44,317 nucleotides of DNA from Klebsiella phage vB_Kpn_004_Koku. The DNA is taken from sequence record PV625053.1, one strand, 5' to 3'. The position numbers and the translations under genes are program-made. This document shows, one piece after another, positions 9,716 to 42,396 of the stretch (within the stretch, counting starts at the first letter, position 1; each line of letters begins with the position of its first letter). Below the pieces are notes generated by a model that had not been told where the DNA came from, ran no database searches, and saw nothing but the letters and a program-made list of their open reading frames with translations.

Positions 9716-9746
9716 GGGTTGTCCAACACGTTGGACAGCCTTTTAT
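9716..9746 (+). terminator. terminator-like hairpin built on palindrome copy
   Basis: GGGTTGTCCAAC-AC-GTTGGACAGCC then TTTTAT. Confidence 0.55.
9720..9737. repeat. palindrome copy TGTCCAACACGTTGGACA
   Basis: member of 9-copy family GTCCAAC-NN-GTTGGAC; intergenic. Confidence 0.9.
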
Positions 9747-9771
9747 GAATGGCATTAACTAAGGAGGTAAC

Positions 9772-12700
9772 ATGGCTGAATTACCAAGCCAGAGTTGGGT
9801 GGGTGTAGCACAACGTCGGTTGCCGCCTACCTTCTCTCAAGTAGCCGAAGCCGAGCGTAAGCTGGAAGCGCAGCGAGAGCAGGACAAGGTTATGACCACT
9901 GCCCTTGAGAGTGAGTGGGCTCTTTATGGTGGACAACGTGCGTTAGAGCGGGCCACCACCGAGTTTGCACCTCAAGAGGGTTATGAAGTTCCGCAGTCTA
10001 CCGTGGAGGAGTTGTCTCGCATTCACGGATACGAGATTGCACAGGAGATTGTGCAAGGTGTACAGTCTCCAGCAGAGCTACAATTCCGCATGTCCAATGC
10101 ACAGGCGGACAAAGATCGTGCTGAGATTCTCGCCCGTAATGGCTTCACTGGCTTCGCTGCTCAATTGGCTGCTGGTGTGCTCGACCCGGTCGGCTGGGCT
10201 GCATCCGTTGTCGCCGCACCTGTAGCTGGTGCCGTCAAGATAGGCCGCATGGGTCGTGTCCTCAAGACTGGCCTGCTGGCTGCCGGGGAGAATGCTGCAC
10301 TTGAAGCTGTGCTGGCCCAAGGCGACTATCAGCGTAACATCGACGATGTGCTAACGGCTGCTGGTTTCGGCATGGTGATGGGTGGCACTATTGGTGCAGC
10401 GACACGCCAGCGCGTCCGAGGTGTAGAGACGGACACGCCACGTGCAACCGTTGACGACCTTGATACTGTGATTCGCGGTGCCGACGAGTTCGACCAGTCT
10501 GCATCTCGCGCCGTCATGGAGGCGATGGAGTATGATGCATATATGGCTGCTCGCAACTTTGAGCCGCTCAAGGCCAGAGAGGTAGACTTCGACATGGCAA
10601 TCTACCAGCATACCGAAGGCTTGCGCAAGCAGGCTAACGTGCGCATGACTGCTAAGGAGAAGGGGCAACTCAAGGCATCCATTCGTCAGGCAGAGGATGA
10701 GCTACGTGTTATGCAAGAGAGTCGCACCGCTGCCAAGGCGGAGCACGCTGCCAAGAAGGGTGCTGCCCGGAGTAAAGCCGAAGCGCTGGACACCAAGGTG
10801 GAGTTGCAGGCGATTGCCCGTCGCTTTGACGCACCTATCGCGGACGCCACCAAACGCCTTGATGAGCTTAACGCAAAGCTGGCGCAGGTTGAGAATGTGG
10901 CAACGTCAAAGGCAGAGCTTAAACGCTTCTCCAGTCTGTCCCGCGAGGAGCAGATCAAGGAGCTAGGTCTTGAGGTGCCGTCTCGTAAAGTTGACATGCA
11001 CAGCGCAGTGCGCGAGGCGGTAGCCGCTATCCGTGCAGAGCGAACCAAGACACCGACTGAGCTACATGCGGAAGCCGTAGCAGCACGTGAGGCAGAGGCC
11101 AAAGCGCCAGACGACTCCTTGTCGGCAGCGCGTGTGGAGGGGTCAGAGATTCAAGGAGAGCAGTTCGACCTGTCCGATAAGATGGAAGATCTGATGGACG
11201 ACCTTGCACGTGAGGCTTACCAGTCTGATGTGCGACCGGTGTCAACCTTTGGGCTTGGCTCTGTCTCTTCTGTTATCCTTAACTCGAAGAACCCTGTATT
11301 CCGTGGCCTAGGTTTACGCCTACTAGAGAATGCCCAAGGTGGCGCCTATCAGGGCAAGACTGCCTCGATCCTGTCTAACGTATATGGTAACTTGATTCGC
11401 ACAGCAGAGCGTAACCGCTACAACGATGGCTTCTCACAGTTCATCAAGGATAACAATCTGCGCGCTATCGACTACCTGAACCCTGCCGTGACGCGAGACT
11501 TCAACAACCAAATCTACACCGCTATCGTTAAAGGCATACCAGATGATACGCCGAAAGGTGTTAAGCTGGCAGCCGAAGGTATGGCTGATAAGTTGAAGAA
11601 GGCGCTTGAGATACGTAAGCAGGCGGGTGAGGCAGGCTTCGAGGACGTCAAGGCGGCGCGTGACTACATGCCTGTGATTTACGATGGCATCAAGGTTACG
11701 GAGGCTGTGAACCGTATGGGTAGCAGCGAGGCCGTAATTGCACTGCTGTCTAAGGGTTATCAGACTGGCAAGTACAAGCTGGGTAAGAAGTCTGCTGATG
11801 CGCTGGCTAAAGTTCAGTACATTCGCGCTTCGGACTCCACCTTGTCTAGCCGTGTGTCCTTTGATCGTGTGGTATCTCAGCAGCAGCAGGTGCAACTTAT
11901 CGAAGACTTGAAGAAGGCAGGTGTGCCGGATTCTATCATCGACAACTTCATCGAAGGCACAGAGTTGCAGGAGATGGCGGAGTCTGTATCGAATCGCGCC
12001 AAGGCCAGCATGGGTATCAACACTCAGGCTGAGTATGGCGGTATGAAGGTGCAGGACTTGCTGAACACTAACGTGGGCGAGTTGGTCGAGAACTACGGCA
12101 AAGAGGCCGCAGGCGGCGCTGCACTGGCCGCAATGGGCTTCCCTACCCGTCAGTCCGTCTTGAACGCTATCGACGCAGCAGAGCGTGCTGGGCGCAATAT
12201 GGCGGGGTCTGACGCCAAGGCCATTAAGCAACTTCGGGCAGAAGCGGACATGCTCCGTGATTCTGTACGAATGTTGTACGGTAACACCATCGACGCCGAC
12301 CCTAACGCTGGCATCGTCAGAGGCACTCGCCGGGTGCGTGAGGTGACAGGCTTGTTACGCCTTGGTCAGATGGGCTTTGCTCAGATACCAGAGATGGCGC
12401 GGGCTATCACGAAGATGGGGCTTGGCACTGTCCTGAAATCCGTACCAGCCACCAAGTTCCTCCGGTCACGTGCCGGGCGAGAAGGTGGTACTGCACAGGG
12501 CAGACTGCTGGAGCCAGAACTCAGGGAGATGGAGGAGCTTGTCGGGTACATCGGTGAGGACAACTGGCTGACTGGCTGGAACGTCCGTCACGATGAGTTC
12601 GGCGAGACTGCCGACAATCTCAGTCGCCTGTCTGCTGTGATAGACAACGGACTGGCGATGGGTAGTCATATCAACACTTGGCTGTCTGGCTTCAAGGCGG

Positions 12701-13566
12701 TGCAGGGTGGTTCTGAGAAAATCGTCGCTCGTTCAATCAATAAGCGCCTCAAGGAGCACCTGTCCGGTGGACGTAAGCTGCCGCAGCGTGACTTGGATGA
12801 GGTGGGTCTTGACGAGGCAACCATGAAGCGGCTACAGCGCCACTTTGATGAGAACCCGTCTTACGCAGACTATAACGGCGAGAAAGTTCGCATGATGAAC
12901 TTCGACGCTATGGAGCCAGATCTTCGGGAAACTGTAGGTGTGGCGGTGCGCCGTATGTCAGGTCGTCTTATCCAGCGTAACTTCATCGGGGATGAGGGTA
13001 TCTGGATGAACAAATGGTGGGGCAAAGCATTGACTCAATTCAAATCATTCTCCATTGTCTCTATTGAGAAGCAGCTAATTCACGATTTACGGGGTGATAA
13101 GATTCAGGCCGCTCAGATTCTGGCTTGGTCTTCCTTGTTAGGCTTCGCATCCTACGCTACTCAGATGCAGATGCAGGCAATCGGTCGTGCAGATCGAGAC
13201 AAGTTCCTACGTGAGAAATTCGATACCCAAAACATGGCTATGGGTGTGTTCAACAAACTGCCGCAGGTTGCAGGCTTCGGTCTGGCTGGCGATGCATTGG
13301 CGACTCTCGGTCTTATGCCGGATGCGCTTATGCAGGCTCCGGGTCGTATGGGCTTCCAGCAGCAAGGCTTTGGTGAACTCGTAGCAGGTGCGGGTGTCAT
13401 TGGTGATGCCGTGGACTTCTCCAAGGCATTGGTTAAGTACGCCAATGGCGACGATGATGTATCGACTCGACAAATCGTTGACAAGATGCGCCGTCTGGTG
13501 CCACTGGCTAACACGATTGGTATTGGTCAAATGACCAAGGCCAGCGTAGACTTATTGGAGGACTGA
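9772..13566 (+). CDS. internal virion protein C (gp16-like, large ejection protein)
   Basis: 1264 aa ORF with AAGGAGG SD; syntenic with T7 gp16 immediately before the tail fibre/adaptor gene. Confidence 0.8.
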   Translation: MAELPSQSWVGVAQRRLPPTFSQVAEAERKLEAQREQDKVMTTALESEWALYGGQRALERATTEFAPQEGYEVPQSTVEELSRIHGYEIAQEIVQGVQSPAELQFRMSNAQADKDRAEILARNGFTGFAAQLAAGVLDPVGWAASVVAAPVAGAVKIGRMGRVLKTGLLAAGENAALEAVLAQGDYQRNIDDVLTAAGFGMVMGGTIGAATRQRVRGVETDTPRATVDDLDTVIRGADEFDQSASRAVMEAMEYDAYMAARNFEPLKAREVDFDMAIYQHTEGLRKQANVRMTAKEKGQLKASIRQAEDELRVMQESRTAAKAEHAAKKGAARSKAEALDTKVELQAIARRFDAPIADATKRLDELNAKLAQVENVATSKAELKRFSSLSREEQIKELGLEVPSRKVDMHSAVREAVAAIRAERTKTPTELHAEAVAAREAEAKAPDDSLSAARVEGSEIQGEQFDLSDKMEDLMDDLAREAYQSDVRPVSTFGLGSVSSVILNSKNPVFRGLGLRLLENAQGGAYQGKTASILSNVYGNLIRTAERNRYNDGFSQFIKDNNLRAIDYLNPAVTRDFNNQIYTAIVKGIPDDTPKGVKLAAEGMADKLKKALEIRKQAGEAGFEDVKAARDYMPVIYDGIKVTEAVNRMGSSEAVIALLSKGYQTGKYKLGKKSADALAKVQYIRASDSTLSSRVSFDRVVSQQQQVQLIEDLKKAGVPDSIIDNFIEGTELQEMAESVSNRAKASMGINTQAEYGGMKVQDLLNTNVGELVENYGKEAAGGAALAAMGFPTRQSVLNAIDAAERAGRNMAGSDAKAIKQLRAEADMLRDSVRMLYGNTIDADPNAGIVRGTRRVREVTGLLRLGQMGFAQIPEMARAITKMGLGTVLKSVPATKFLRSRAGREGGTAQGRLLEPELREMEELVGYIGEDNWLTGWNVRHDEFGETADNLSRLSAVIDNGLAMGSHINTWLSGFKAVQGGSEKIVARSINKRLKEHLSGGRKLPQRDLDEVGLDEATMKRLQRHFDENPSYADYNGEKVRMMNFDAMEPDLRETVGVAVRRMSGRLIQRNFIGDEGIWMNKWWGKALTQFKSFSIVSIEKQLIHDLRGDKIQAAQILAWSSLLGFASYATQMQMQAIGRADRDKFLREKFDTQNMAMGVFNKLPQVAGFGLAGDALATLGLMPDALMQAPGRMGFQQQGFGELVAGAGVIGDAVDFSKALVKYANGDDDVSTRQIVDKMRRLVPLANTIGIGQMTKASVDLLED

Positions 13567-14585
13567 TGAGCTATACCTTTACCGAGAGGACAGCAGACGG
13601 TTCGCAGACCACTTTCTCTTTCAGCTTTGCTGGGGCAGACAAGGGTTACATTCGAGCCTCTGATATCTACGTTGAAGTCGGTGATGGTAGGACTTGGCAG
13701 AGTGCCACTGGATGGCGCCTGTCAGGCACAAACCAGATCACATTCAACGTACCACCTTCTCGCGGTACAGTAGTAAGGATTCGGCGTATTGTAGGGAAGG
13801 ATCAGCCGTATGCTAACTTCGACCGCAATGTTATCTTGGATATGAAATCCTTGAATAACTCTTTTATCCAGCAACTTGAGTTAACTCAGGAGATGCTAGA
13901 TGGTTTCTTGCCAGATAGTTTCTACTTCAAGCAAGATATCAACGCGGGCTGGCATAACATCTACCACCTAATGCCTGGCACAGAAGATCACCATGCTGTG
14001 AACAAGGCGCAGTTTGATTCAGCAAATAGCAACCTGCAAACGCAGATTGATGAGAATGATGCCAAGCAGACGGCATGGAACAAGCGTCAGGATGAGCAGA
14101 TTGTTGGTATTATTAAGTCGTTTGACTCCAACATCTCTCACAGGACAGCACCTTGGACGTATGAGGCAGTGGGCGGTGAGACTAAAGTATCACCTCCGTT
14201 CTTCTTCCACTCCGCACTAGTGTGGCGAGATGGTGTCTTCCAAGACGAATTAGCAGGTGCATTCGAGATCGTTAATAACGAAATCCTACTGGCACAACCT
14301 GCATTGCGCAAAGGTGAGCGTGTCTCTGTACTGGTTGGTTCCCGCATCGCAGTGCCGGAGGTAGGTAACGTGCTTCGCATGTCTTACCGCATCACCGAAG
14401 GTACGACTGTGGTCAACCTTGGAACTACCGTAGAGGGTGTTGAGGTGTACCTTGATGGTCTTATCCAAGATGAAGATGCCTACACTCTTAACGCCGACCA
14501 TCGAACCCTTACCTTCACGGAGCCTTTACCGGAGTGTCGGATGATGGTTAAGGCGGTCTTTGATAACAGAACTCGCTTAGAGTAA
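13566..14585 (+). CDS. tailspike adaptor protein (T7 gp17 N-terminal domain-like)
   Basis: 339 aa; N-terminus MSYTFTERTADGSQTTFSFSFAGADKGYIRASDIYVEV.. is the conserved tail-attachment domain of T7-group fibre proteins; no receptor-binding C-terminal part, as in SP6/K1-5 adaptors. Confidence 0.8.
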   Translation: MSYTFTERTADGSQTTFSFSFAGADKGYIRASDIYVEVGDGRTWQSATGWRLSGTNQITFNVPPSRGTVVRIRRIVGKDQPYANFDRNVILDMKSLNNSFIQQLELTQEMLDGFLPDSFYFKQDINAGWHNIYHLMPGTEDHHAVNKAQFDSANSNLQTQIDENDAKQTAWNKRQDEQIVGIIKSFDSNISHRTAPWTYEAVGGETKVSPPFFFHSALVWRDGVFQDELAGAFEIVNNEILLAQPALRKGERVSVLVGSRIAVPEVGNVLRMSYRITEGTTVVNLGTTVEGVEVYLDGLIQDEDAYTLNADHRTLTFTEPLPECRMMVKAVFDNRTRLE

Positions 14586-14594
14586 GGAGGAAGC

Positions 14595-24201: not shown

Positions 24202-24219
24202 TGTCTAACACGTTGGACA
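24202..24219. repeat. degenerate palindrome copy TGTCTAACACGTTGGACA
   Basis: one mismatch; 11 bp upstream of -35 of host promoter P1. Confidence 0.7.
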
Positions 24220-24230: not shown

Positions 24231-24259
24231 TTGACAGGTTATCTTGGTGTATGCATAAT
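24231..24259 (+). promoter_or_regulatory. early sigma70 promoter P1
   Basis: TTGACA-17 bp-CATAAT. Confidence 0.75.
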
Positions 24260-25702: not shown

Positions 25703-26611
25703 ATGACTACCGAAAACATCCTCCTGTCTGTCCGCGAAGCTGCAACCGCTGAAATCAAAGCACATTTGGAGACAATCGGCGCTTCTTACCTCAAAGTTGG
25801 CTCCCTCCTGAATGAGTTACGCGGTGATTTTGAGAACCAGCGCGAGTTTCTCGCCTACGTAGAAGAAGAATTCAGCATTAAGAAAGCACAATGCTACAAC
25901 CTTATGAACGTAGCGCGTTGCTTTGACGGTGACGAGCGCTTTAAAGGTGTGGCGATGCGCGTCATGCTGTCCCTGATTCCGTTTGCAGATGAGGCCGGGA
26001 TTATGGATAAGGCCGCAGAGCTTGCCGCAGAGGGCAAATTAGATACGAAGGCCGTTAATGCACTTACGGGCAAGCCTGAGAAGCCAGCGGCTAAACCTAT
26101 GCAATCACAAGGCGGGCCAGAGAAAACCGCTGAGAATGCCGCAGAGAGCGCAGAGCAGGCACCGCAGAGCGTACCCGAAGAATCTAATATAGAATGGGGC
26201 GCCGATGAAAACACGGATTCGGCACCGTGGGACGACGAACCAGCGCAGCGCGACGACTCACAGAAAGCGCCAGAGCGTAAAGCGGAGCCGCTGGATAACG
26301 CTGCAAACGCTGAGAGCGCTGCTATGGCTGGCCTGTTGGAGCAGATTAAGAGTCTTACCGAACAACTCAAAGCCGCAAACGACCGTATCGCAGAGCTAAC
26401 CAGCACCCGCGAGAACAAGAAAGCAGCCGCTCCTATGCTTCCACAATTTAAATCCTCCTGCTTCTATGCTCGCTTAGGTTTAAGCGCTGAGGAAGCCACC
26501 AAGAAAACAGCAGTTAACAAGGCCAAACGTGAACTTGTTAAACTTGGTTATGGTGAGGGCCATGAAGCGTGGACGCTTATTGCCGAGGCAGTAGCGGAAT
26601 TAACTAAGTGA
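25703..26611 (+). CDS. early hypothetical protein with acidic low-complexity centre
   Basis: 302 aa; structured N-terminal ~100 aa, then Ala/Glu/Pro-rich disordered segment, conserved-looking C-terminal ~60 aa; last gene before RNAP. Confidence 0.7.
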   Translation: MTTENILLSVREAATAEIKAHLETIGASYLKVGSLLNELRGDFENQREFLAYVEEEFSIKKAQCYNLMNVARCFDGDERFKGVAMRVMLSLIPFADEAGIMDKAAELAAEGKLDTKAVNALTGKPEKPAAKPMQSQGGPEKTAENAAESAEQAPQSVPEESNIEWGADENTDSAPWDDEPAQRDDSQKAPERKAEPLDNAANAESAAMAGLLEQIKSLTEQLKAANDRIAELTSTRENKKAAAPMLPQFKSSCFYARLGLSAEEATKKTAVNKAKRELVKLGYGEGHEAWTLIAEAVAELTK

Positions 26612-29315: not shown

Positions 29316-29348
29316 AGGGCCAGCCTTCGGGTTGGCCTTTTCTTTTGC
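29316..29348 (+). terminator. terminator after RNAP gene
   Basis: GGCCAGCC-TTCG-GGTTGGCC (one G-U) followed by TTTTCTTTTG. Confidence 0.75.
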
Positions 29349-29374: not shown

Positions 29375-29392
29375 AGTCCAACGTGTTGGACA
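29375..29392. repeat. palindrome copy AGTCCAACGTGTTGGACA
   Basis: 8 bp upstream of promoter 29401. Confidence 0.9.
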
Positions 29393-29400: not shown

Positions 29401-29421
29401 ATTTAGGAGACACTATAGGAC
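29401..29421 (+). promoter_or_regulatory. SP6-type promoter variant (origin region, left)
   Basis: ATTTAGGAGACACTATAGGAC. Confidence 0.7.
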
Positions 29422-29538: not shown

Positions 29539-29556
29539 TGTCCAACGTGTTGGACA
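29539..29556. repeat. palindrome copy TGTCCAACGTGTTGGACA
   Basis: 4 bp upstream of promoter 29561. Confidence 0.9.
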
Positions 29557-29738: not shown

Positions 29739-31727
29739 ATGGCGATCATCAATAACATCCCTTGCCCGATGTGCCAGAAGAACGGGCACGATAAATCCGG
29801 CAACCATCTAATGATCTTTGAGGATGGTGCTGGTTACTGTAACCGTAGTCACTTCCACGACAACGGACGACCTTACTACCACAAGCCCGAGGGCGGCATC
29901 GAGATCACAGAGCTACCTATCAATGGTTCAATCAAGTACACTCCTGCACAATTCCGTGACTTGGAGAAAGAAGGGAAGATAGCAGACCCTAAACTACGTG
30001 CCATCGCCCTTGGTGGTATGCGAATGAAAGACCGCTGGGAGGTCATGAATGACGAAGAGAAGGCAGAGCAAGAAGCCGAGTGGCAACTTGATGTTGAGTG
30101 GTTCCTTGAACTTAAAAGGAAGAACCTTGTATCACGACACATTCGAGGCGACATTTGTGCGCTGTATGACGTCCGAGTCGGTCATGATGGTGAAGGGAAG
30201 GTTAACAGGCATTACTACCCTCGCTTCGAGAATGGCAAACTTGTAGGCGCGAAGTGCCGGACACTCCCTAAAGACTTCAAGTTCGGGCATCTTGGTAAGC
30301 TATTCGGCAATCAGGATATGTTCGGTATGAACACCATGTCCAACGTGTTGGACAAGGGCCGTCGCAAAGACGTGCTGTTAATTGTCGGCGGCGAACTTGA
30401 TGCGATGGCTGCGCAGCAGATGCTGATGGATGCAGCTACTGGCGACTGGAAGGGCAAGCCTTATCACGTCTGGTCTGTGAACAAGGGCGAGTCTTGCCTT
30501 GAAGAGATCGTCCAGAACCGGGAGCACATCTCGCAGTTCAAGAAAATTATATGGGCCTTCGACGGTGACGAGGTAGGGCGCAAGCAGAACCAGCAAGCGG
30601 CCCGCCTGTTCCCCGGCAAGTCCTATATCCTTGAGTACCCTGCCGGGTGCAAGGATGCGAACAAGGCGCTGATGGCTGGCAAGTCGAAGGAGTTCGTCGA
30701 TGCATGGTTCAACGCCAAGTCCAGCGAGGAAGTCTTCGGTAGCCAGATTAAGTCCGTTGCGTCGATGCGTGACGAACTCAAGAAGGCCCGACCAGAGGAG
30801 GGACTGTCATGGCCTTGGCCTAAGCTGAACAAGGTTACGCTGGGTATTCGTAAGCACCAGCTTATCATCGTCGGCGCAGGCTCCGGTGTGGGTAAGACCG
30901 AGTTCCTACGCGAAGTGGTTAAGCACCTCATCGAAGAGCATGGGGAATCCGTTGGTATTATCTCGACGGAAGACCCGACCAAGAAGGTGGCGCGTGCATT
31001 CATCGGGAAGTGGATCGACAAGCGCATTGAGTTGCCGCCGACAAATGACCCGACCGAAGATGGCTATCGTGAGGTACTTGACTACACAGATGAGGAAGCG
31101 GCAGCAGCTATCGACTACGTAGCAGATACAGGTAAGTTCTTTGTAGCTGATCTCGAAGGTGACTACTCAATGGAGAAGATTGAGCAGACCTGCCTAGAGT
31201 TCGAAGCTATGGGGATTCAGAACATCTTTATTGATAACTTAACGGGGATTAAATTAGATGAGAGAGCATATGGTGGTAAGGTTGGAGCGCTTGATGAGTG
31301 CGTCAAAAGGATTGGAACTATCAAAGACCGACATCCTGTTACGATCTTCCTTGTCAGTCACCTTACTCGCCCTTCGGGACAACGTACCCAACACGAAGAA
31401 GGTGGTGAAGTTATCCTTTCTGACTTCCGAGGCTCAGGAGCTATCGGATTCTGGGCTTCTTACGCCTTGGGGATTGAGCGTAACACACGAGCTGAATCGC
31501 TTGATGAAAGAACTACCACGTACATCTCATGCGTCAAAGACCGTGACCAAGGGATTTTCACGGGGACTAAGGTCATGCTTAAAGGCGACCTTGCAACCGG
31601 TAGATTGAAGGAACCTCAAGCACGAACCAAGAGCTTTGACACAGGTGTACCTAAGCAGCAGGAAGTACCTGATGATTTAGGTGACACTATAGAACAAGGT
31701 AACTTCGAGGAAGAGCAGGAGTTCTAG
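29739..31727 (+). CDS. DNA primase/helicase (gp4-like)
   Basis: 662 aa; N-terminal Cys4 zinc ribbon CPMCQKNGHD..CNRSH, Walker A GAGSGVGKTEF, acidic C-terminal tail ..NFEEEQEF ending in Phe as in T7 gp4. Confidence 0.9.
   Translation: MAIINNIPCPMCQKNGHDKSGNHLMIFEDGAGYCNRSHFHDNGRPYYHKPEGGIEITELPINGSIKYTPAQFRDLEKEGKIADPKLRAIALGGMRMKDRWEVMNDEEKAEQEAEWQLDVEWFLELKRKNLVSRHIRGDICALYDVRVGHDGEGKVNRHYYPRFENGKLVGAKCRTLPKDFKFGHLGKLFGNQDMFGMNTMSNVLDKGRRKDVLLIVGGELDAMAAQQMLMDAATGDWKGKPYHVWSVNKGESCLEEIVQNREHISQFKKIIWAFDGDEVGRKQNQQAARLFPGKSYILEYPAGCKDANKALMAGKSKEFVDAWFNAKSSEEVFGSQIKSVASMRDELKKARPEEGLSWPWPKLNKVTLGIRKHQLIIVGAGSGVGKTEFLREVVKHLIEEHGESVGIISTEDPTKKVARAFIGKWIDKRIELPPTNDPTEDGYREVLDYTDEEAAAAIDYVADTGKFFVADLEGDYSMEKIEQTCLEFEAMGIQNIFIDNLTGIKLDERAYGGKVGALDECVKRIGTIKDRHPVTIFLVSHLTRPSGQRTQHEEGGEVILSDFRGSGAIGFWASYALGIERNTRAESLDERTTTYISCVKDRDQGIFTGTKVMLKGDLATGRLKEPQARTKSFDTGVPKQQEVPDDLGDTIEQGNFEEEQEF
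30337..30354. repeat. palindrome copy TGTCCAACGTGTTGGACA inside primase-helicase CDS
   Basis: encodes MSNVLDK in frame. Confidence 0.9.
31674..31694 (+). promoter_or_regulatory. SP6-type promoter inside 3' end of primase-helicase gene
   Basis: ATTTAGGTGACACTATAGAAC; encodes DLGDTIEQ in the helicase. Confidence 0.85.
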
Positions 31728-31743
31728 TGTTCTTATCAGGGCT

Positions 31744-31761
31744 TGTCCAACATGTTGGACA
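31744..31761. repeat. perfect palindrome TGTCCAACATGTTGGACA
   Basis: flanked by GGGCT/AGGCTC extending the stem to 12 bp; after primase-helicase gene. Confidence 0.9.
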
Positions 31762-31799
31762 GGCTCTTATTAAGCACATTAACTAACAGGAGAAATGAA

Positions 31800-32465
31800 A
31801 TGATTAAGTTGGTATTAAATGTTGGCGACCGTGTACGTAACATCAACAAGCAGTCCAGTCGCTATCAAACCAAAGGCGTAGTTGTGGCAGTAGGCGACAG
31901 CATATACGTAGTAAAGTATCGCAACGGTGCTGATCAATCTTATATCAAGAAGCTGGCACATAACTATCTGGAGAAGATAGTGGAGGCTGAAAGCAAGTGC
32001 AAGTGTGTGCATGATGAACTATGTGAGCATTGCACTCGCCAAGCGCAGAAAGCCATCACCTTCTTCGCACGTTACGGTGCAGGCACCAAGTCGATTGCAG
32101 AGCATATGGCACAGAGCCGCAAGGTGCTGAAACGGGAGCGCCGCAATGTGATCACTGGCATGACCCAATCGGATATGCACCGCCAGCATGGTGCAGAAGG
32201 TGTCGTCATGTTCAACACTCGTGCAACCGGGCGCAGCACAGGCCAAGCCTTCCGCATCTTGGGTGAAGCCATGTGCAATCCGGGTGTCGCCATTCGAATC
32301 CAAGACGTAGACCATGCGATCTCGGAAGGCAAAGGCAACCGCTGGCAGCTTAACAAACACTTCGAGCACATCTTACGTGACACTATAGGAGATATGAAAG
32401 GCTTCCACTTTGAGCACGGACATATCACATTTAACCCTATCGTTACGGAGGAAACTTATGTCTAA
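31800..32465 (+). CDS. hypothetical protein (221 aa)
   Basis: ATG 31800 is 7 nt after AGGAG (ORF-track extension to 31743 lacks SD and runs through the palindrome); Cys-rich segment CKCVHDELCEHC. Confidence 0.6.
   Translation: MIKLVLNVGDRVRNINKQSSRYQTKGVVVAVGDSIYVVKYRNGADQSYIKKLAHNYLEKIVEAESKCKCVHDELCEHCTRQAQKAITFFARYGAGTKSIAEHMAQSRKVLKRERRNVITGMTQSDMHRQHGAEGVVMFNTRATGRSTGQAFRILGEAMCNPGVAIRIQDVDHAISEGKGNRWQLNKHFEHILRDTIGDMKGFHFEHGHITFNPIVTEETYV
32371..32391 (+). promoter_or_regulatory. SP6-type promoter variant inside hypothetical gene
   Basis: TCTTACGTGACACTATAGGAG. Confidence 0.55.
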
Positions 32466-32673
32466 GAAACCTAGCCTCAAGTTCCTTGATGGGAACGAGT
32501 ACCTGCAACAACGTGTAACCAATCAGGCATTCCTGTTCGCACAGCTTACTATGGCAGAAGCCAAGAAGAATAGTCTTACCCGCGATCAGGTTATCAAAGA
32601 CGCTACATGGGAGCCCCACAAGGGAACCTACATGGGGTGCAAGGTTACAGTGGAGCGCAAGAAAGTCAGTTAA
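32458..32673 (+). CDS. hypothetical protein (71 aa)
   Basis: ATG 32458 follows GGAGG; downstream of an internal phage-promoter variant at 32371. Confidence 0.55.
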   Translation: MSKKPSLKFLDGNEYLQQRVTNQAFLFAQLTMAEAKKNSLTRDQVIKDATWEPHKGTYMGCKVTVERKKVS

Positions 32674-32685
32674 TAAGTCATGGGT

Positions 32686-32703
32686 TGTCCAACATGTTGG
32701 ACA
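32686..32703. repeat. perfect palindrome TGTCCAACATGTTGGACA
   Basis: GGGTTGTCCAACATGTTGGACAGCC, 25-mer nearly identical to copy at 9716. Confidence 0.9.
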
Positions 32704-32734
32704 GCCTATCATCATATTAATTGGAGGTAACTCA

Positions 32735-36112: not shown

Positions 36113-36171
36113 AATAGGTCGATTGGGTTCGGCCTATGATTGTATCGTGTAACCAAAGGAGGAATAAATTA

Positions 36172-36975
36172 ATGGCTCGTAATTTTGATTTTGGTGCTGA
36201 GGTTGCTGCTGCTACTGGCGGTGTATTTAAGAACCCGGAAGTTGGTGATCATGAGGCTGTGATCTCTGGTATCATTCATGTTGGTTCCTTCCAAGACATC
36301 TTCAAGAAAGGCAACACCACCGAAGTTAAGAAGCCTGCCAACTTTGTGCTGGTCAAGGTTATCCTGATGGGTGACGACGACAAGAACGATGATGGCTCTC
36401 GCATGGAGCAGTGGATGGCTGTGCCGCTCAAGTCTGGTGACAAGGCTACACTGACTAAGTTCCTGAATGCGGTTGACCCGAAAGAACTGCTTGGTGGTTT
36501 CGACGACTTCATCGGCGAGTGCATGACTGTTAGCATGGTCGGCGACGAGAAGGGTGGCAAGAATGAAGACGGCACCTTCAAGTACGTTAACTGGAAAGGC
36601 TTCGGCGGTATGCCGGATAAACTCAAGAAGCTGGTGTTGGCGCAGGTTGAAGAAGAAGGTCTGCCCATGACTGGTCATATCACCTTCGACAAGCTGACTC
36701 GTGAGGTTATCGACTCTATCCCGGCGCATCTGGTTCGCCAGTACCTGCTGAACGAAACTCCGCGCGGCAAGAACTTATCCGTTGCTGGCTCACACGTTGA
36801 GGCGATCATTGCTGAGGCGCGTGCTGCCGATGCAGACTGGAAGAAGGCCAAGAAGAAAGACGGTGACGCAACTCCAGAAGATCGCCAGTCTCTGGACACT
36901 GGTGCTGCTGTACCGCAGGAAGTTCCGGCGCAGGACGTCCCGGCTCCGGCTATGGATGAAGACGCAGAATATTAA
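36172..36975 (+). CDS. hypothetical protein with acidic C-terminal tail (..MDEDAEY); candidate ssDNA-binding protein
   Basis: 267 aa from ATG 36172 (AAGGAGG SD); ORF-track extension is GTG/TTG-initiated leader; acidic tail with terminal aromatic residue like T7 gp2.5, but no direct sequence match recognised. Confidence 0.6.
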   Translation: MARNFDFGAEVAAATGGVFKNPEVGDHEAVISGIIHVGSFQDIFKKGNTTEVKKPANFVLVKVILMGDDDKNDDGSRMEQWMAVPLKSGDKATLTKFLNAVDPKELLGGFDDFIGECMTVSMVGDEKGGKNEDGTFKYVNWKGFGGMPDKLKKLVLAQVEEEGLPMTGHITFDKLTREVIDSIPAHLVRQYLLNETPRGKNLSVAGSHVEAIIAEARAADADWKKAKKKDGDATPEDRQSLDTGAAVPQEVPAQDVPAPAMDEDAEY

Positions 36976-36986: not shown

Positions 36987-37205
36987 ATGAAAGTTGAAGT
37001 TGTAACTCTGCACTACAAACCGGGTGTGACGACTCTGGCAGGCACTAGCTTTATGTCTTTTTCAGAAGGCGATACATATCCAGATCTGCACTACATCGTG
37101 CGCGAAGGCCAGCACGTTGTGAATTACACCAACCCGGAGACTGGCGCGCGCCACGGCGTATCCGTCCCGGTATCTGACATACGTCAGGTCAACACTGTCC
37201 TGTAA
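36987..37205 (+). CDS. hypothetical protein (72 aa)
   Basis: AGGAGG SD; ends at the palindrome copy at 37205. Confidence 0.55.
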   Translation: MKVEVVTLHYKPGVTTLAGTSFMSFSEGDTYPDLHYIVREGQHVVNYTNPETGARHGVSVPVSDIRQVNTVL

Positions 37206-37222
37206 GTCCAACACGTTGGACA
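37205..37222. repeat. palindrome copy AGTCCAACACGTTGGACA
   Basis: between gene stop and promoter 37237. Confidence 0.9.
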
Positions 37223-37236
37223 AATCGGTGTCCTCT

Positions 37237-37257: not shown

Positions 37258-37301
37258 AAGATAACGGCAAATCGCCACAATTTTAAGAAGGAGATTAAAA
37301 T

Positions 37302-37679
37302 ATGTTCACTATCGAAACCCTGTCTAACCGTGTTGTCAAAGCTGGTAAACTGGAAGTTGTTGAGTCCTTCATCATTGTTGACGAAGCTGGCGCACTGGTA
37401 GCTGGCACCAAAGCCTACGACACCCGCGAAGAAGCACAGGCTAAGATCGACAGCATGGGTAACTTCGCCACTGGTCTGGAGTTCGCACGTGCAATGTACG
37501 GCGATCAGGCTGACAAGGCACAGATCGGTAAGGCAAACATCGTTGCTGAATTCCTGGATTGGGTTGCTGCTGGCAAGCCTGTGAAGGAAGCCAAAGCTGA
37601 CGCTGCTGTAGAAGAAGCTGCTCCGGTCGAGGAAGCTGCTGCTCTGGCAGACATTGTTAGCGAAGAAGAAGAGTTCTAA
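37302..37679 (+). CDS. hypothetical protein with acidic C-terminal tail ending ..SEEEEF
   Basis: 125 aa after promoter 37237 (AAGGAG SD); Ala/Glu-rich C-terminus ending in Phe; followed by a terminator. Confidence 0.65.
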   Translation: MFTIETLSNRVVKAGKLEVVESFIIVDEAGALVAGTKAYDTREEAQAKIDSMGNFATGLEFARAMYGDQADKAQIGKANIVAEFLDWVAAGKPVKEAKADAAVEEAAPVEEAAALADIVSEEEEF

Positions 37680-37683
37680 TAAG

Positions 37684-37716
37684 CGCCCTGTCTCCTAGTG
37701 AGGCAGGGTATTTTGC
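37684..37716 (+). terminator. terminator after 125-aa acidic-tail gene
   Basis: CCCTGTCTC-CTAGT-GAGGCAGGG followed by TATTTTG. Confidence 0.7.
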
Positions 37717-37740
37717 GTAATAGTTATTGGAGAATTAATT

Positions 37741-38034: not shown

Positions 38035-38975
38035 TAGATGGAGATATGATTCCTTATATCATTGGTTACACTATCAGTGATATGACCTTGGTGCGAGCTA
38101 TGACACGTGTGAAGTCTGGTCAAGTGGCTCGCATCGAAGATACACCTGAATGCAAGCAGGCATGTGATCGCGTCAACTCTATGCTCAACTCTTGGGTGTA
38201 CGGCGCAGAGTGTGATGCCGCTCGCATCTTCCTCACCAAGTCTGACGCTAACTTCCGTCTGCGTCTGGCCTTCACTAGGCCATACAAAGGTACACGCAAG
38301 GCAGAGAAGCCGCCATTCTTCTATGAGATGCGCGAGCACCTTATGAGTGTACACAAGGCAGAGCTTGCCGATGGCGAAGAGGCGGACGACTTGATGAGTA
38401 CAGCGCAATGGGATGCGCATCGACGATTCCTACAGGAGAGTGGTAACGAGTTCGAAGTCGGTAGTCCTGAGCACAAGGCATTCTCCGATACTGTTATCGT
38501 GTCCGCAGATAAAGACCTGATGATTGTACCCGGCTGGCATCTACAACCGGGCAGCGACTTGAAGTGGGTAGACCAGATGGGCTGGCTTGAGTTACGCCGC
38601 AAGGCTAACGGTCAGGTCAAAGACCTTAAAGGCGCTGGCCTCAAGTTCTTCTACGCACAGATGATCATCGGCGACGACATTGATAACTACGCTGGGATAC
38701 CGGGCAAGGGTGCTGCCTTTGCCTATAAGCTGCTTGACGGCTGCAAGACTGAGAAGGAGCTTTACATGGCTGTGCTGGGTGCCTACAAGGATAAGTTCGG
38801 GCATGGCGCAGTCAAACTTAGAAACCATAGGGGAACTTATCGTATCGGCAAGGCGTTCGACCTGATGCTTGAGTGTGGGCGCTTGGCTCACATGGCTCGT
38901 TTCAAGGGAGATGTGTGGCGGGCCGACAAGAACCCTATCCTGTGGGGAGACGACGACGGATGGCTACAAAGCTAA
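37938..38975 (+). CDS. 5'-3' exonuclease (FEN-family, T7 gp6-like)
   Basis: 345 aa; ..RIALIDGDMIPYII.. (cf T7 gp6 ..ILVMDGDWLVF..), ..YKGTRKAEKPPFFYE.. (cf ..YKANRKAVKKPVGY..), ..VIVSADKDL..; start may be ATG 37947. Confidence 0.8.
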   Translation: MAYMRPNFNFGATVSEDNNLILWPTDGKRIALIDGDMIPYIIGYTISDMTLVRAMTRVKSGQVARIEDTPECKQACDRVNSMLNSWVYGAECDAARIFLTKSDANFRLRLAFTRPYKGTRKAEKPPFFYEMREHLMSVHKAELADGEEADDLMSTAQWDAHRRFLQESGNEFEVGSPEHKAFSDTVIVSADKDLMIVPGWHLQPGSDLKWVDQMGWLELRRKANGQVKDLKGAGLKFFYAQMIIGDDIDNYAGIPGKGAAFAYKLLDGCKTEKELYMAVLGAYKDKFGHGAVKLRNHRGTYRIGKAFDLMLECGRLAHMARFKGDVWRADKNPILWGDDDGWLQS

Positions 38976-39379
38976 AAGCCTCCGAGGTTGCTGCTTATAA
39001 GCAGGAGCTTATGGAGAAGCAGGGGTACAAGTGCCCTTTATGTGGTGGCAGTCTCAAGGCTGTCACTCCTGTTAACCGTGTACTTGACCACGATCATGAC
39101 ACTGGATTCTGCCGTGCCGTTGTATGCCGAGGCTGCAATGGTGCAGAAGGCAAGATCTTAGGCGTTATCTCAGGTTATGGTAAGGCGGGGAACAACAAGT
39201 ATTTCCAGCTTAAATGGTTGGAGAACTTGTATAACTATTGGAAGTTACACCAGACGCCGCAGACTGACAAGCTGTATCATAAGCACCAGACTGCGGCAGA
39301 GAAGCGCGAGGCTCGCAATCGCAAGGCTCGCTTGGCATACGCAAAGAAGAGAGCAGGAGCAGTGACATGGGCTGTATAG
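38960..39379 (+). CDS. endonuclease VII-type Holliday-junction resolvase
   Basis: 139 aa from ATG 38960; ..YKCPLCGGSL..LDHDHDTGFCRAVVCRGCNGAEGKI..LKWLENLYNYWK.. matches T4 endo VII (..CLICQREL..HLDHDHELNG..RGLLCNLCNAAEGQ..YLEWLENLLTYLK..). Confidence 0.85.
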   Translation: MATKLKASEVAAYKQELMEKQGYKCPLCGGSLKAVTPVNRVLDHDHDTGFCRAVVCRGCNGAEGKILGVISGYGKAGNNKYFQLKWLENLYNYWKLHQTPQTDKLYHKHQTAAEKREARNRKARLAYAKKRAGAVTWAV

Positions 39380-39804
39380 ACCACGGGTATCACAAGTGCC
39401 TTAACAAACTTGGATACTACAGGGCATGGCATAAGCCGAGTAAGAAGTTGCAGTTACTCCACCGTGTGGTCTATGCAGAACACCACGGTCTTTCTATAGA
39501 AGATATAAAGGGTGTAGTGATTAGGCACACTTGTGACAATGCAAGATGCATAAACCCTGCACATTTAATATCTGGTACACAGCAAGACAACATCCAAGAT
39601 ATGATAGGCAGAGGTAGGCGCGCCTCCTTTGCAGGTGAGCGTAACAATAAGGCTAAATTATCTTGGGAAGTTGTCCGCGCCATTAGGGAAACCTATGTTG
39701 CAAACAAGAAAGGCGAGAGGCTTAGACTGGCTAACCTCTATGGCGTCTCGCCTGCTACCATCAGTGATATTGTGAGTGGGAGGGTTTGGAAAGAGAATGG
39801 GTAA
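39367..39804 (+). CDS. HNH homing endonuclease with C-terminal HTH (sigma-70 region 4-like) domain
   Basis: 145 aa; ..LHRVVYAEHHG..IRHTCDNARCINPAHL..GTQQDN.. HNH_3-type motif; C-terminal ..NKAKLSWEVVRAIRETY..ERLRLANLYGVSPATISDIVSG.. HTH; overlaps both neighbouring genes. Confidence 0.8.
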   Translation: MGCIDHGYHKCLNKLGYYRAWHKPSKKLQLLHRVVYAEHHGLSIEDIKGVVIRHTCDNARCINPAHLISGTQQDNIQDMIGRGRRASFAGERNNKAKLSWEVVRAIRETYVANKKGERLRLANLYGVSPATISDIVSGRVWKENG

Positions 39805-40804
39805 GATCAGAAATTTATTCACAAATAAGGAGGTAGAGGACGCCGTAGATAGCGCCAAGCGAGAGGATGGTACTATCAACTACCGTCTGATGGCGGATAT
39901 CCTGTCTGATAATACGCATGGAACTAAAGTCACACGTCAGCTTGCCAAATATTGGGCGCGTCAGTTTTCTACCCGTAAAAAGAATGGCGAAGCCTATGAA
40001 ACTCTGGCGCAAGCTAATAAAGAACTCAAGGCATCGCGTAAGCTGCGCACTCCTGATCGCTATGAAGATCTGGCTGCTTTACCAATGCCTGCATCGGATC
40101 ATCATAGCATACTGGTAATTCCAGACACGCACGCCCCCTACGAGCACCCGGATACATTGGAGTTCCTCGCAGCCGTGGCTGCACGTTACAGACCGGACAC
40201 TGTCGTACATCTTGGGGACGAAGCAGATAAACATGCTATGTCATTTCATATGTCCGACCCAAACCTTGACTCTGCTGGCATGGAACTGGAGAAGGCACGT
40301 GTCTTCATGGCGAAGCTGCACGCGATGTTCCCGGTGATGCGCCTGTGTCACTCGAACCACGGCTCTATGCACTTCCGCAAGGCACACTCGCACGGCATCC
40401 CTGTGCAATACCTCCGCACCTACCGCGAAGTGTTCTTCCCGCAAGGTGGCGGCGAGCGCTGGGAGTGGCAGCATACGCACGTCCTCGAACTGCCGAACGG
40501 TGAGCAGGTTGCCTTCAAGCACCAGCCAGCCGGGGCCGTGCTGGGCGACGCCGCACATGAGCGCATGAACTTGGTGTGTGGTCACTTGCATGGCAAAATG
40601 TCTATCGAGTATGCCCGGAATACGCATGAGCAGTATTGGGCGGCACAGGGCGGTTGTCTGGTGGATGAAGAATCCCGCGCCTTCTCGTATGGCAAGGAGT
40701 CCAAATACAAGCCAGCGCTGGGTTGCCTTGTGATTCTAGAAGGCGTACCGCAGATCATCCCGATGCAGACCAATAGCGACGGTCGTTGGATTGGCAAGAT
40801 TTAA
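39797..40804 (+). CDS. calcineurin-like metallophosphoesterase
   Basis: ..LVIPDTHAPYEHPD.., ..VVHLGDEADKHA.., ..GHLHG.. metal-ligand motifs of the Ser/Thr phosphatase/phosphoesterase fold; start ATG 39797 or GTG 39776. Confidence 0.75.
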   Translation: MGKIRNLFTNKEVEDAVDSAKREDGTINYRLMADILSDNTHGTKVTRQLAKYWARQFSTRKKNGEAYETLAQANKELKASRKLRTPDRYEDLAALPMPASDHHSILVIPDTHAPYEHPDTLEFLAAVAARYRPDTVVHLGDEADKHAMSFHMSDPNLDSAGMELEKARVFMAKLHAMFPVMRLCHSNHGSMHFRKAHSHGIPVQYLRTYREVFFPQGGGERWEWQHTHVLELPNGEQVAFKHQPAGAVLGDAAHERMNLVCGHLHGKMSIEYARNTHEQYWAAQGGCLVDEESRAFSYGKESKYKPALGCLVILEGVPQIIPMQTNSDGRWIGKI

Positions 40805-40819
40805 GTGACACTATAGAAC
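40799..40819 (+). promoter_or_regulatory. SP6-type promoter
   Basis: ATTTAAGTGACACTATAGAAC. Confidence 0.8.
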
Positions 40820-40870
40820 AAAGGGTGGTTTCGACTGCCCTTGATTGTATACTGTCAATAGGAGGTAAAT

Positions 40871-41446
40871 ATGATTATTGTTCTTAATGCCCCTCCGGGT
40901 GCAGGCAAAGACACAATCGCCAAACGCATGGCTGAGGCCAGCAAAGCATTCAAGTTGGCATCAATGAAGGAACCTATGTGGGATATCGCAAAGGCGGTGT
41001 TAGGCTCCAAGTATGATGAGTTTGTCGGTTTGTACAATGACCGCGAGACAAAAGAGAAACCATGTGAGTTCTTAGGTGGCCTGTCTCCGCGTCAATTCTT
41101 CATCCACATCTCGGAGCAGTGGTGCAAGCCTTTGTTCGGAGAGCAATACTTCGGTGAACGTATGTTGCAGCGAGTTAACCAATTGAAGCCCTATGAAGTG
41201 GTTCTATCTGACGGCGGCTTCCCGGATGAACTCAAGCCAGCACTTGAAGCTGGTGAGACTATAATGCTGGTTCGCCTACACAGAGAGGGTTACACCTTCG
41301 AAGGAGACAGCCGTGACTATATCCGTGCTGAGGATTTACCCGGTGAAGAGTTTTGGGTTATCGATGTGAATCTTGAAGAAGGAGAGATTGACAAGGCAGT
41401 AACTCAAATCATCGCAGCCTATGAAGTCTTACTGGAGGTGTACTGA
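40871..41446 (+). CDS. P-loop nucleotide kinase (T4 dNMP kinase-like)
   Basis: ..IVLNAPPGAGKDT.. P-loop and ..YNDRETK.. recall T4 gp1 ..SGVKRSGKDT.. / ..DYDRETN..; AGGAGG SD; downstream of promoter 40799. Confidence 0.65.
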   Translation: MIIVLNAPPGAGKDTIAKRMAEASKAFKLASMKEPMWDIAKAVLGSKYDEFVGLYNDRETKEKPCEFLGGLSPRQFFIHISEQWCKPLFGEQYFGERMLQRVNQLKPYEVVLSDGGFPDELKPALEAGETIMLVRLHREGYTFEGDSRDYIRAEDLPGEEFWVIDVNLEEGEIDKAVTQIIAAYEVLLEVY

Positions 41447-42396
41447 TGGATATCTTCTCTTTCATTGGCTTGCCAGAAGGTCACAGAACTAAGCCAGTTA
41501 TGTTGGTCAAGCATCGGGATGAAGTGCCGGATAATAAGATTAAATTCCCCGTATATGGACAGGTGAAACGTGATGGTATATTCTCTGCTGTTGTTGTTCG
41601 CGCTGATAGTGTCGTTGGCATTTTTGGTCGCACTGGTAAGAAACTGGCAAACGTTGAAGCGCTCGAACAAAGATTTGCTTCCTTTCCGGCTGGCATTTAT
41701 CTTGGTGAGTTGCAGTCTATGGCCGTTGATATCTACCTTGAAGCACTCTCTGGTGTGGTGAACCCCAACCGGACGGAGCCTCTTGATTACATCGGTCAGC
41801 AAATCAAGGATAACTTGTACATAGACTTCTTTGACATGCTGACAATCAAGGCATTCACTGATGGATACACGGATGTTACATTCCTTAAACGCCATGCAGC
41901 GCTGGAGCGGCGCATAGGTGAACTGGTGTCCAACACGTTGGACAACATCCTGCCTGTCACTCCTTGCCATAACGAGGCAGAGGTTGAAGCATTCGCTAAG
42001 ATGCACATCGACGCAGGCCGAGAAGGTGCTGTGTTCAAGCTGGATTGTGACTACGAGGCAGGTCACAAGGGATACCGTCAGACCAAGATCGTTCGCATGG
42101 TGAGCTATGACCTCACCTGTATCGGTTGGGAAGAAGGTAAAGGTAAGTACAAAGGCAAGGTTGCTAACCTCATCTTTAAATGGAAAGGTGGCAAGACTGT
42201 CAAAGCTATGCTCGGCAGGGGTTGGACGCATGAAGATGCCGAGCGTATGTATCACGATATTAAACATGGTGGCGAGTTGAATGTCATCGGGAAGATCTTC
42301 GCTGTCAAGGCATTACAGGAATCTAGCAAGGGAGTCCTGAGACTTCCCAAGGCTGGAGAGTTACGCCATGATAAGGAGGAACCAGATGTCTTTTGA
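41446..42396 (+). CDS. ATP-dependent DNA ligase (T7 gp1.3-like)
   Basis: 316 aa; adenylation motif I ..YGQVKRDGIF.. (KxDG), ..EGAVFK.. motif; ATG overlaps kinase stop. Confidence 0.8.
   Translation: MDIFSFIGLPEGHRTKPVMLVKHRDEVPDNKIKFPVYGQVKRDGIFSAVVVRADSVVGIFGRTGKKLANVEALEQRFASFPAGIYLGELQSMAVDIYLEALSGVVNPNRTEPLDYIGQQIKDNLYIDFFDMLTIKAFTDGYTDVTFLKRHAALERRIGELVSNTLDNILPVTPCHNEAEVEAFAKMHIDAGREGAVFKLDCDYEAGHKGYRQTKIVRMVSYDLTCIGWEEGKGKYKGKVANLIFKWKGGKTVKAMLGRGWTHEDAERMYHDIKHGGELNVIGKIFAVKALQESSKGVLRLPKAGELRHDKEEPDVF
41928..41945. repeat. palindrome copy TGTCCAACACGTTGGACA inside ligase CDS
   Basis: encodes VSNTLDN in same codon register as the primase copy. Confidence 0.9.

Follow-up and report, generated by a model that had tools for sequence, protein, structure and literature searches.

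Klebsiella phage vB_Kpn_004_Koku (sequence record PV625053.1) is an SP6-like, circularly permuted member of the Molineuxvirinae with ~95% identity to vB_Kpl_K44PH129C1. Its 44,317-bp sequence, which we call the window throughout, carries a 16-bp palindrome at nine dispersed places, and we examine here what may recognize this element, with the phage early protein gp7 as the candidate binder. A motif scan of the window with the pattern GTCCAACNNGTTGGAC, allowing at most one mismatch, returns exactly 9 matches (8 exact and 1 with one mismatch), compared with 0/100 dinucleotide-preserving shuffles, and allowing up to 3 mismatches adds no copy in the window. The claim of the original prediction that nine copies are beyond chance is borne out, as is its description of the central dinucleotide (AC, GT or AT). 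The copies that it listed are all present, and most of its start positions were one base low because the flanking T had been counted in. Table 1 gives the positions; the single mismatch lies in copy 1, whose left arm reads GTCTAAC.

Table 1. Palindrome copies and other features of the window (copies numbered from the left genome end)
Feature	Position	Strand	Context
Copy 1, GTCTAACACGTTGGAC	24203-24218		Core only; upstream of the -35 of the first strong sigma-70-like early promoter
Best sigma-70-like early promoter	24231-24259		TTGACA-17-CATAAT
gp7-like early gene, 302 residues	25703-26611	+	N-terminal ParB/KorB-type (DUF3102-like) helix-turn-helix domain, predicted, residues 1-125
gp7 Asn66 codon	25898-25900		
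Intrinsic terminator	29318-29346	+	GGCCAGCC-TTCG-GGTTGGCC, then T run; follows RNA polymerase gene
Copy 2	29376-29391		Core only; 3' of RNA polymerase gene terminator, upstream of phage promoter 29401-29421
Copy 3	29540-29555		Core only; upstream of phage promoter 29561-29581
Primase/helicase gene	29739-31727		
Copy 4	30338-30353	+	In frame within primase/helicase gene, codons 200-205, M-S-N-V-L-D
Copy 5	31745-31760	+	Apex of two-tier RNA hairpin 31725-31781, 3' of primase gene
gp11	31800-32465		Small basic protein
gp12	32458-32673		Small basic protein
Copy 6	32687-32702	+	Apex of two-tier RNA hairpin 32666-32724, 5' of DNA polymerase gene
gp18	36136-36972		
Copy 7	37206-37221		Core only; abuts TAA stop of open reading frame 36987-37205; upstream of phage promoter 37237-37257
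gp20	37302-37679		
HNH gene	39367-39804		Between endonuclease VII and phosphoesterase
DNA ligase gene	41446-42396		
Copy 8	41928-41943	+	In frame within DNA ligase gene, S-N-T-L-D
69-residue protein	42368-42577		
Copy 9	9721-9736	+	Apex of two-tier RNA hairpin 9699-9760, between two large internal-virion-protein genes
Portal gene, parts at window ends	43422-44317 and 1-655		

Only 3 of the ~13 phage promoters have a copy upstream (those at 29401, 29561 and 37237), with gaps of 9, 5 and 15 bp to the promoter's upstream edge, and copy 1 ends 12 bp from the -35 of the sigma-70-like promoter. The distances of 4-11 bp given in the original prediction deviate slightly from these values. In several lineages, only 0-5 bp separate the palindrome from a phage promoter's upstream edge. 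Copy 1 sits upstream of all early promoters, and its left-end homologue is found in SP6, K1-5, K1E, Pm5460, PP1, Era103, BD1 and Ulina01; the physical left genome end lies near 23.6-24.2 kb. At copy 2, PP1 and Era103 have equivalent intrinsic terminators upstream and keep the window's order of terminator, palindrome and promoter. A simple terminator role, which had been doubted from the start, is ruled out for copy 2 because the canonical terminator stands just upstream of it. At none of the nine copies is a GC-rich hairpin directly followed by a U run, as in an intrinsic terminator; only copy 9 has a short run, CUUUUAU. Copy 3 has homologues in SP6, K1-5, K1E and contig L160, and the layout of copy 7 is kept from Vibrio phage BD1 to K1-5. 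The counterpart of copy 8 in SP6 and PP1 lies in the adjacent kinase gene.

Palindrome type across related phages and within genes

We surveyed 157 copies in 20 genomes and found the general form GTC-Y-M-AC-RY-GT-K-R-GAC. Positions 1-3 and 6-7 and their partners (outer GTC/GAC, inner AC/GT) are invariant in all 157 copies, so G-U variants do not occur there. The two inner arm bases at positions 4 and 5 switch for a whole genome at a time, giving CAAC, TAAC or TCAC types while the positions of the copies are retained. Two-base centers are purine-pyrimidine in 121/121 cases (GT 52, AT 30, AC 26, GC 13), and three-base centers are R-N-Y in 36/36. From the constraint on the center and the invariant arms, it follows that the unit is a pair of 8-bp half-sites, GTCYMACR, either abutting or one base apart (8+0+8 or 8+1+8).

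Nine copies, most of them GTCTAAC-NN-GTTGGAC, lie at corresponding map positions in SP6, and Pectobacterium phage PP1 also has nine. In K1-5, K1E and Erwinia phage Era103, a different palindrome, GTCTCAC-NN-GTGAGAC, stands in the same places. Thus the proposed comparison with SP6, K1-5 and K1E finds positions conserved in all three, with the window's motif kept in SP6 and replaced in K1-5 and K1E. Proteus phage Pm5460 carries GTCCAACA-N-TGTTGGAC, GTCTAAC-RY-GTTAGAC is found ten times in Vibrio phage BD1, and Pseudomonas phages Ulina01 and Alpheus and Vibrio phages Vp670 and phiVP140 share GTCTCAC-N3-GTGAGAC, mostly as GTCTCACA-N-TGTGAGAC. PP99 and RCIP0053 have GTCTAGT-RY-ACTAGAC, and T7 has no such palindrome. 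An unfiltered motif scan of viral contigs gave mainly single chance matches and was uninformative. A literature search with six variant 16-mers found no paper, and the 2004 SP6/K1-5 genome papers may mention the repeat; the GenBank record of Pm5460 labels one copy as a terminator, from its fold alone.

The two coding copies share a codon register, as had been proposed: primase codons 200-205 read ATG TCC AAC GTG TTG GAC in the window, and the ligase reads GTG TCC AAC ACG TTG GAC (V-S-N-T-L-D) from codon 161. The primase copy occupies the same codons from Vibrio to Klebsiella phages and follows the lineage type through synonymous codons, or in some lineages through an Asn-to-His change. The window's TCC AAC GTG TTG GAC is TCT AAC GTG TTG GAC in SP6, TCT AAC GTG TTA GAC in BD1, and TCT CAC GTG TTA GAC (Asn to His) in K1-5 and K1E, where the right arm stays GTTAGAC because GTGAGAC would give an in-frame TGA. 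Because codon choice tracks the lineage's motif type, selection on the coding copies at the nucleic-acid level, suggested at the outset, is strongly upheld. Several relatives have a further copy inside the RNA polymerase gene (R-V-S-N/H-V-L-D), which the window has lost (Q-A-N-V-W-D at about 28100).

This positional stability bears on an explanation of the palindrome as a mobile element or as a target of recombination or of a homing endonuclease, which draws on the window's HNH gene and on an extra copy beside a NUMOD4 endonuclease insertion in L161. However, SP6 keeps nine copies without an HNH gene at that place, so the link to the HNH enzyme is not borne out. Endonuclease genes vary among relatives whereas the sites do not, and the positions are stable from Vibrio to Klebsiella phages, unlike those of a mobile element; by its phyletic pattern this explanation is already largely refuted, and we consider it extremely improbable. 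The HNH gene itself is present in the window and K44PH129C1 and absent from SP6 and K1-5, as expected of a variable insertion unrelated to the palindromes. In L161, the NUMOD4 homing-endonuclease gene (L161:5779-6470) lies at the 5' end of the primase gene, and the extra copy, off-type CAAC, lies just beyond, at 6452.

RNA hairpins and the form in which the core is read

Copies 9, 5 and 6 form the apices of two-tier RNA hairpins, in which an asymmetric internal loop separates a lower stem of ~9-11 bp from an upper stem of 13 bp. Their folding energies are -26.2 kcal/mol (z = -5.3), -26.6 kcal/mol (z = -7.1) and -24.8 kcal/mol (z = -6.6), respectively. The other six copies have a stem of only 6-7 bp and fold z-scores no better than shuffled sequence. 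We aligned 22 hairpins from 13 phage genomes or contigs and found standard pairs in 95.5% of cells, versus 78% in shuffles and 33-46% with the partners slid; pairs changed on both sides number 13, compared with a shuffle mean of 10.0. Three G-U pairs are conserved that would become A-C mismatches on the opposite strand, and consequently the hairpin forms on the sense RNA.

For comparison, we folded the ten T7 RNase III sites (positions after Dunn and Studier 1983). The T7 sites have a two-tier architecture with the consensus ACUCAAGG-(upper stem)-CCUUUAUGAU. Copy 9 reads uACUCAAGGguu-(core)-agCCUUUUAUGAAU, and its flanks, ACUCAAGG...CCUUUUAUGA, agree with the T7 flanking consensus (ACUCAAGG...CCUUUAUGA), while the flanks of copies 5 and 6 match it only in part. 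The T7 sites (R0.3-R18.5) and these three copies share the succession of lower stem, asymmetric internal loop and upper stem, and both are intergenic and precede ribosome-binding sites. They differ in that the T7 upper stem is 9-10 bp rather than 13 bp, that the apex of the phage hairpins is the invariant palindrome, and that the palindrome also stands alone at six more places and in phages without the flanks. Judged by structure and sequence, copies 9, 5 and 6 are predicted T7-type RNase III processing signals, and by analogy with T7 the copy 9 hairpin would be cut near 9744-9748. The window has no Rfam match at gathering score. The earlier suggestion of RNA hairpins or RNase III substrates is therefore well supported at these three copies, on folds, covariation and T7 likeness, and lacks such support for the core in general.

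If RNA alone were responsible, all copies would be RNase III or other processing hairpins or 3'-end stabilizers, and their uniformity would come from nuclease recognition or copy conversion. The covariation, the sense-only G-U pairs and the T7-like architecture and flanks of the three hairpins all favor this account. It also draws on the location of intergenic copies, mostly at gene 3' ends, on the likeness of T7's own RNase III upper stems across sites, and on position 4/13, where the lineages form the series C-G, U-G, U-A, a course typical of RNA. However, the stems of six of the nine copies are too short for RNase III, G-U variants in the arms are never seen outside position 4, and off-type cores, in genomes whose gp7 carries Lys at a key position (see below), are mostly hairpin copies. 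Four further observations count against RNA alone. First, Vibrio BD1 and Pseudomonas Ulina01 have the core without any flanking stem. Second, little transcription is expected at copies 1 and 2, which lie before all early promoters and just after the early terminator, respectively. Third, dyad symmetry extends to positions that cannot pair in a hairpin loop. Fourth, copy 1 of Vectrevirus stably retains a mid-stem C-U mismatch. We regard an explanation by RNA alone as unlikely. These last four observations together argue for a symmetric dimer that recognizes double-stranded DNA, and an operator for a dimeric DNA-binding protein, one of the functions listed in the original prediction, is now the reading of the core best supported by sequence comparison.

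gp7 as candidate binder

We propose with moderate confidence, on comparative sequence grounds, that the 16-bp core is an operator bound by a dimer of gp7 and serves KorB-like control. The early operon includes the gp7 gene, which comes after the sigma-70-like promoters and precedes both the RNA polymerase gene and the early terminator. PHROGs lists its family as of unknown function, and domain searches with ten small early and middle proteins returned only results of that kind.

We scanned alignment columns of conserved proteins for those that separate TCAC-type from CAAC/TAAC-type genomes. In the first scan (13 genomes, 11 proteins), only gp7 has a separating column. In the second (20 genomes, 10 proteins, ~5,300 columns), a single column, the x of the gp7 segment KKAQCY-x-LM, separates the types fully without varying within the TCAC group; its residue is Lys in TCAC genomes, Asn in the others and His in SP6. 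The column of the primase residue that the embedded palindrome encodes separates the types as well and serves as a positive control. In AlphaFold models, the window's residue, Asn66, is the sixth residue of a helix (61-74) that follows helix 46-57 and a short turn, and this is the second helix of the predicted helix-turn-helix region. At motif position 5/12, genomes with Asn have A:T and those with Lys have C:G, in keeping with general protein-DNA recognition preferences, and residue 66 may contact this base pair.

Two predictions were derived from the gp7 residue alone and then checked. Salmonella phage SE29 combines SP6-type promoters with Lys in gp7. As predicted, the copies near its promoters and the one in its primase gene are of TCAC type; they include copy 7, which lies ~12 kb from the gp7 gene within SP6-type flanks. 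The three hairpin-embedded copies of SE29 are CAAC. Contig L160 has K1-5-type promoters and encodes a protein (P0104) with Asn in an otherwise Vectrevirus-like gp7 helix; 6/6 of its copies are CAAC type, as predicted, with eleven CA half-sites, one TA and no TC, and a primase copy that begins ATG TCC AAC. Tabulating residue against type, with duplicate records of the same phage included, we count 19 loci with gp7 Asn or His and a majority half-site xA (CAAC/TAAC), 15 loci with gp7 Lys and a majority half-site TC (TCAC), and 1 locus, SE29, with gp7 Lys and a mosaic. No Asn/His gp7 genome of the table has a TC half-site. In Lys genomes, the off-type cores are mostly RNase III-hairpin copies (K1-5 site 6, L133 site 5, SE29 sites 5-6), and the remaining two are coding copies in L140 and L161. 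Because off-type cores fall mostly at hairpin copies, the hairpin role does not seem to need the cognate sequence, in keeping with two separable functions. A neighbor-joining tree of the polymerase, primase and DNA polymerase implies at least three co-switches of residue and motif.

The dyad features of a DNA site do not by themselves name the binder, and the core could serve a different phage product or a host factor, with the gp7 correlation arising by coincidence or by linkage hitch-hiking. The gp7 gene is only ~3-5 kb from copies 2-4, so recombination could move them jointly, and nearby genes encode small basic proteins without known function (gp11 and gp12). Yet no other conserved protein has a discriminating column, BD1 and Ulina01 bear the palindrome but encode neither gp11 nor gp12, and Era103 bears it without gp11. 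Moreover, SE29 copy 7 still matches the gp7 residue across its distance and foreign flanks, and motif type is independent of the host from Vibrio to Klebsiella. We consider a different binder quite unlikely. Two specific candidates were rejected: the 69-residue protein, which emerged from presence/absence profiling and is strongly acidic, and host transcription factors, as their sites (CRP, IHF, RutR and others) do not match and motif type does not follow the host.

A further possibility is that the palindrome acts in replication as a single-stranded DNA hairpin, as a priming, helicase-loading or origin element. Five copies cluster around the primase gene (14-21% of the genome), and two of these accompany the tandem promoters that follow the RNA polymerase gene and that we take to be the counterpart of the T7 primary origin. 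The outer triplet on both strands is GTC, the recognition triplet of T7 primase, and the center changes fast by transitions, like an exposed loop. However, a 16-bp palindrome is short for cruciform extrusion, and neither the genome-wide type switch nor the gp7 correlation is explained. A strand flip around the presumed origin was rejected, as orientation of the left-end copy differs between lineages (its wobble is on the plus strand in the Klebsiella group and on the minus strand in SP6), and the primase GTC-site idea was rejected since it leaves the conserved inner bases unexplained. We hold a replication hairpin to be very unlikely. The central dinucleotide does vary unusually fast, by transitions only, among phages 95-99% identical: copy 9 has AC in the window (9721) and GT in L002 (38809), and copy 5 has AT, AC or GT. 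This could result from neutral drift under the R-Y constraint, from palindrome inversion, or from deamination of bases exposed in a loop.

Returning to gp7 as the candidate binder, in its structural model the N-domain (residues 1-125) is followed by a disordered acidic linker, a coiled coil and, at the C-terminus, a small helical domain. The isolated N-domain is modeled with a pLDDT (predicted local distance difference test) of 87.5, and its fold matches are Spo0J/ParB (score 9.7), the KorB DNA-binding domain on operator DNA (7.9), the ParB DNA-binding domain (7.7), KorB (7.3), and SopB, P1 ParB and VirB (5.1-5.4); in the BFVD library, the best matches are phage DUF3102 proteins. As modeled, the N-domain has a ParB/KorB-type helix-turn-helix fold. 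Sequence searches give no significant match: gp7 has no match in Pfam or NCBIfam, phmmer and profile searches against the PDB give no ParB or KorB match, Pfam DUF3102 is matched weakly by 5/12 gp7 members (best E = 0.03), and a profile search with the N-domain alignment returns 6 proteins only. The ParB/Srx (CTPase) domain is absent, the DNA-binding domain beginning at residue 1, and for this reason gp7 is ParB-DNA-binding-domain-like and not a canonical ParB. The TCAC-type half-site TGTCTCAC and the parS half-site TGTTTCAC are identical at 7/8 positions. The gp7 C-terminal segment (26420-26608; FYARLGLSAEEA...KAKRELVKLGYGEGHEAW) is superficially J-domain-like, without an HPD motif, and has no library match.

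Several observations weigh against gp7 as the reader of the core. Six copies in SP6 have T at position 4 and keep G at 13, a sense-strand U-G wobble that an RNA helix tolerates. Both core types occur together in K1-5, L133, SE29 and L161, and Pm5460 has both the 8+0+8 and the 8+1+8 spacing. The missing CTPase domain sets gp7 apart from the proteins that it resembles, and in KorB part of the specificity lies outside the helix-turn-helix, so that residue 66 may make no base contact. The independent lineage switches are few (at least three, perhaps four), and physical linkage through recombination could explain part of the correlation between gp7 and motif. Finally, the gp7 homologue of Aeromonas phage Aer_P220 has Arg at the key position, and this phage carries one palindrome only (L152:8115-8132), a perfect 18-bp copy, TGTGTACTATAGTACACA, just 3' of the RNA polymerase gene; it may be a reduced version of the system.

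Possible regulation by gp7 and related systems

In the proposed mechanism, gp7 would be made from the host-transcribed early operon and its dimer would bind the nine sites: by the first early promoter, before three middle promoters, between cistrons, and inside the primase and ligase genes. The dimer would read two 8-bp half-sites, and its operator would extend to 18 bp (T-GTCCAAC-RY-GTTGGAC-A), with TGTCCAACRYGTTGGACA as the predicted target; we infer this physical binding from sequence comparison. Both the 8+0+8 and the 8+1+8 layout could be accommodated by flexibility of the acidic linker, which precedes the coiled coil. At copy 1, binding may lead to autoregulation or shut-off of the first early promoter; at the first middle promoters, bound gp7 may occlude or insulate; and within or between middle genes, it may form roadblocks to RNA polymerase. 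Overall, by analogy with KorB and ParB, the outcome would be KorB-like global control of early and middle transcription, with a possible role in origin use or in organizing the genome. In enterobacterial lineages, three of the sites are additionally built into hairpins of the T7 RNase III type.

The closest parallel is KorB and its operator OB (TTTAGCGGCTAAA) of the IncP plasmid RK2, in which a ParB-family DNA-binding domain acts on a short palindrome. The OB operators of RK2 are several and are scattered over a ~45-60 kb replicon, some promoter-proximal and some distant, and KorB is a global repressor, the role that we propose for gp7. The systems differ in that gp7 lacks the CTPase clamp domain, has no identified KorA partner, and belongs to a strictly lytic T7-supergroup phage rather than a plasmid. 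The phage sites are 16-18 bp, lie in part within essential coding sequence and in three cases are also RNA hairpins, and gp7 binding is a candidate interaction. A second parallel is ParB/Spo0J with parS, a 16-bp palindrome (TGTTNCACGTGAAACA), together with Noc-NBS, SopB-sopC and VirB; in the ParB/Noc family, specificity switches through few residues of the DNA-binding domain. Compared with parS, the phage half-sites are parted by two or three extra central base pairs. In contrast to ParB, gp7 has no CTPase domain, no significant sequence similarity and no ParA partner, and a partition role is not expected in a lytic phage. T4-type PeSL cassettes and bacterial REP elements are also repeated intergenic palindromes, uniform within a genome and different between lineages, and the PeSL palindrome lies directly upstream of a promoter. 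In contrast, the sites of the SP6 group keep their positions across deeply diverged phages, are also intragenic, and come with a co-varying candidate binder.

We tentatively extend the proposal to a whole clade of the lytic T7 supergroup, from the SP6 group to Vibrio and Pseudomonas relatives, although here we are somewhat more doubtful than convinced. These phages may have a stripped-down protein derived from ParB/KorB and parS-like sites, even within essential genes and RNase III hairpins, that co-evolved by a single Asn/Lys to A:T/C:G switch. The pair would time or insulate transcription by the phage polymerase, in place of the absent T7 lysozyme-polymerase control, or organize the replicating genome. 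SP6 and its polymerase are in wide laboratory use, and related SP6-like phages of Klebsiella, E. coli K1 and Salmonella are in therapy development, while the switching of gene expression in the SP6 group is poorly known and gp7 is listed as of unknown function. If gp7 is the binder, SP6-group phages would have a genome-wide regulator with defined sites, and a ParB-like domain would offer a natural specificity switch of one residue and one base pair. It would also be a rare DNA operator that limits the choice of codons and even of an amino acid in essential genes and at the same time forms the tip of an RNA-processing hairpin. For phage engineering, recoding the primase or ligase gene or deleting 'terminator-like' hairpins may delete regulatory sites.

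Some observations concern neighboring genes. A weak model match to a replication initiator for gp18 was set aside as probably misleading. gp18 is probably a gp2.5-like single-strand-binding protein, because the consensus C-terminus of its family is acidic and ends in Tyr (...DMDExxEY in the homologue alignment). The gp20 C-terminus reads SEEEEF, and in a seven-phage alignment of the primase C-terminus (near 31700) Phe662 is invariant, with the consensus ...EEQEF. These tails recall T7 gp2.5 and gp4, whose acidic tails ending in an aromatic residue dock on DNA polymerase.

Palindrome cassettes are also duplicated locally. SE29 has two identical hairpins around a ~1-kb insert (L159:9163, 10163), Ulina01 has a palindrome-plus-promoter unit in tandem repeat (L151:8617, 8672), and Era103 has two palindromes on either side of a truncated promoter-like sequence (L127:7022, 7057). 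These duplications suggest that the cassettes are involved in gene gain through recombination. PP99 and RCIP0053 (L153, L157) have two palindromes, GTCTAGT-RY-ACTAGAC and GTACTAG-N4-CTAGTAC, often adjacent and upstream of promoters, and RCIP0053 carries 17 tandem 10-bp units containing CTATAG at 8195-8360.

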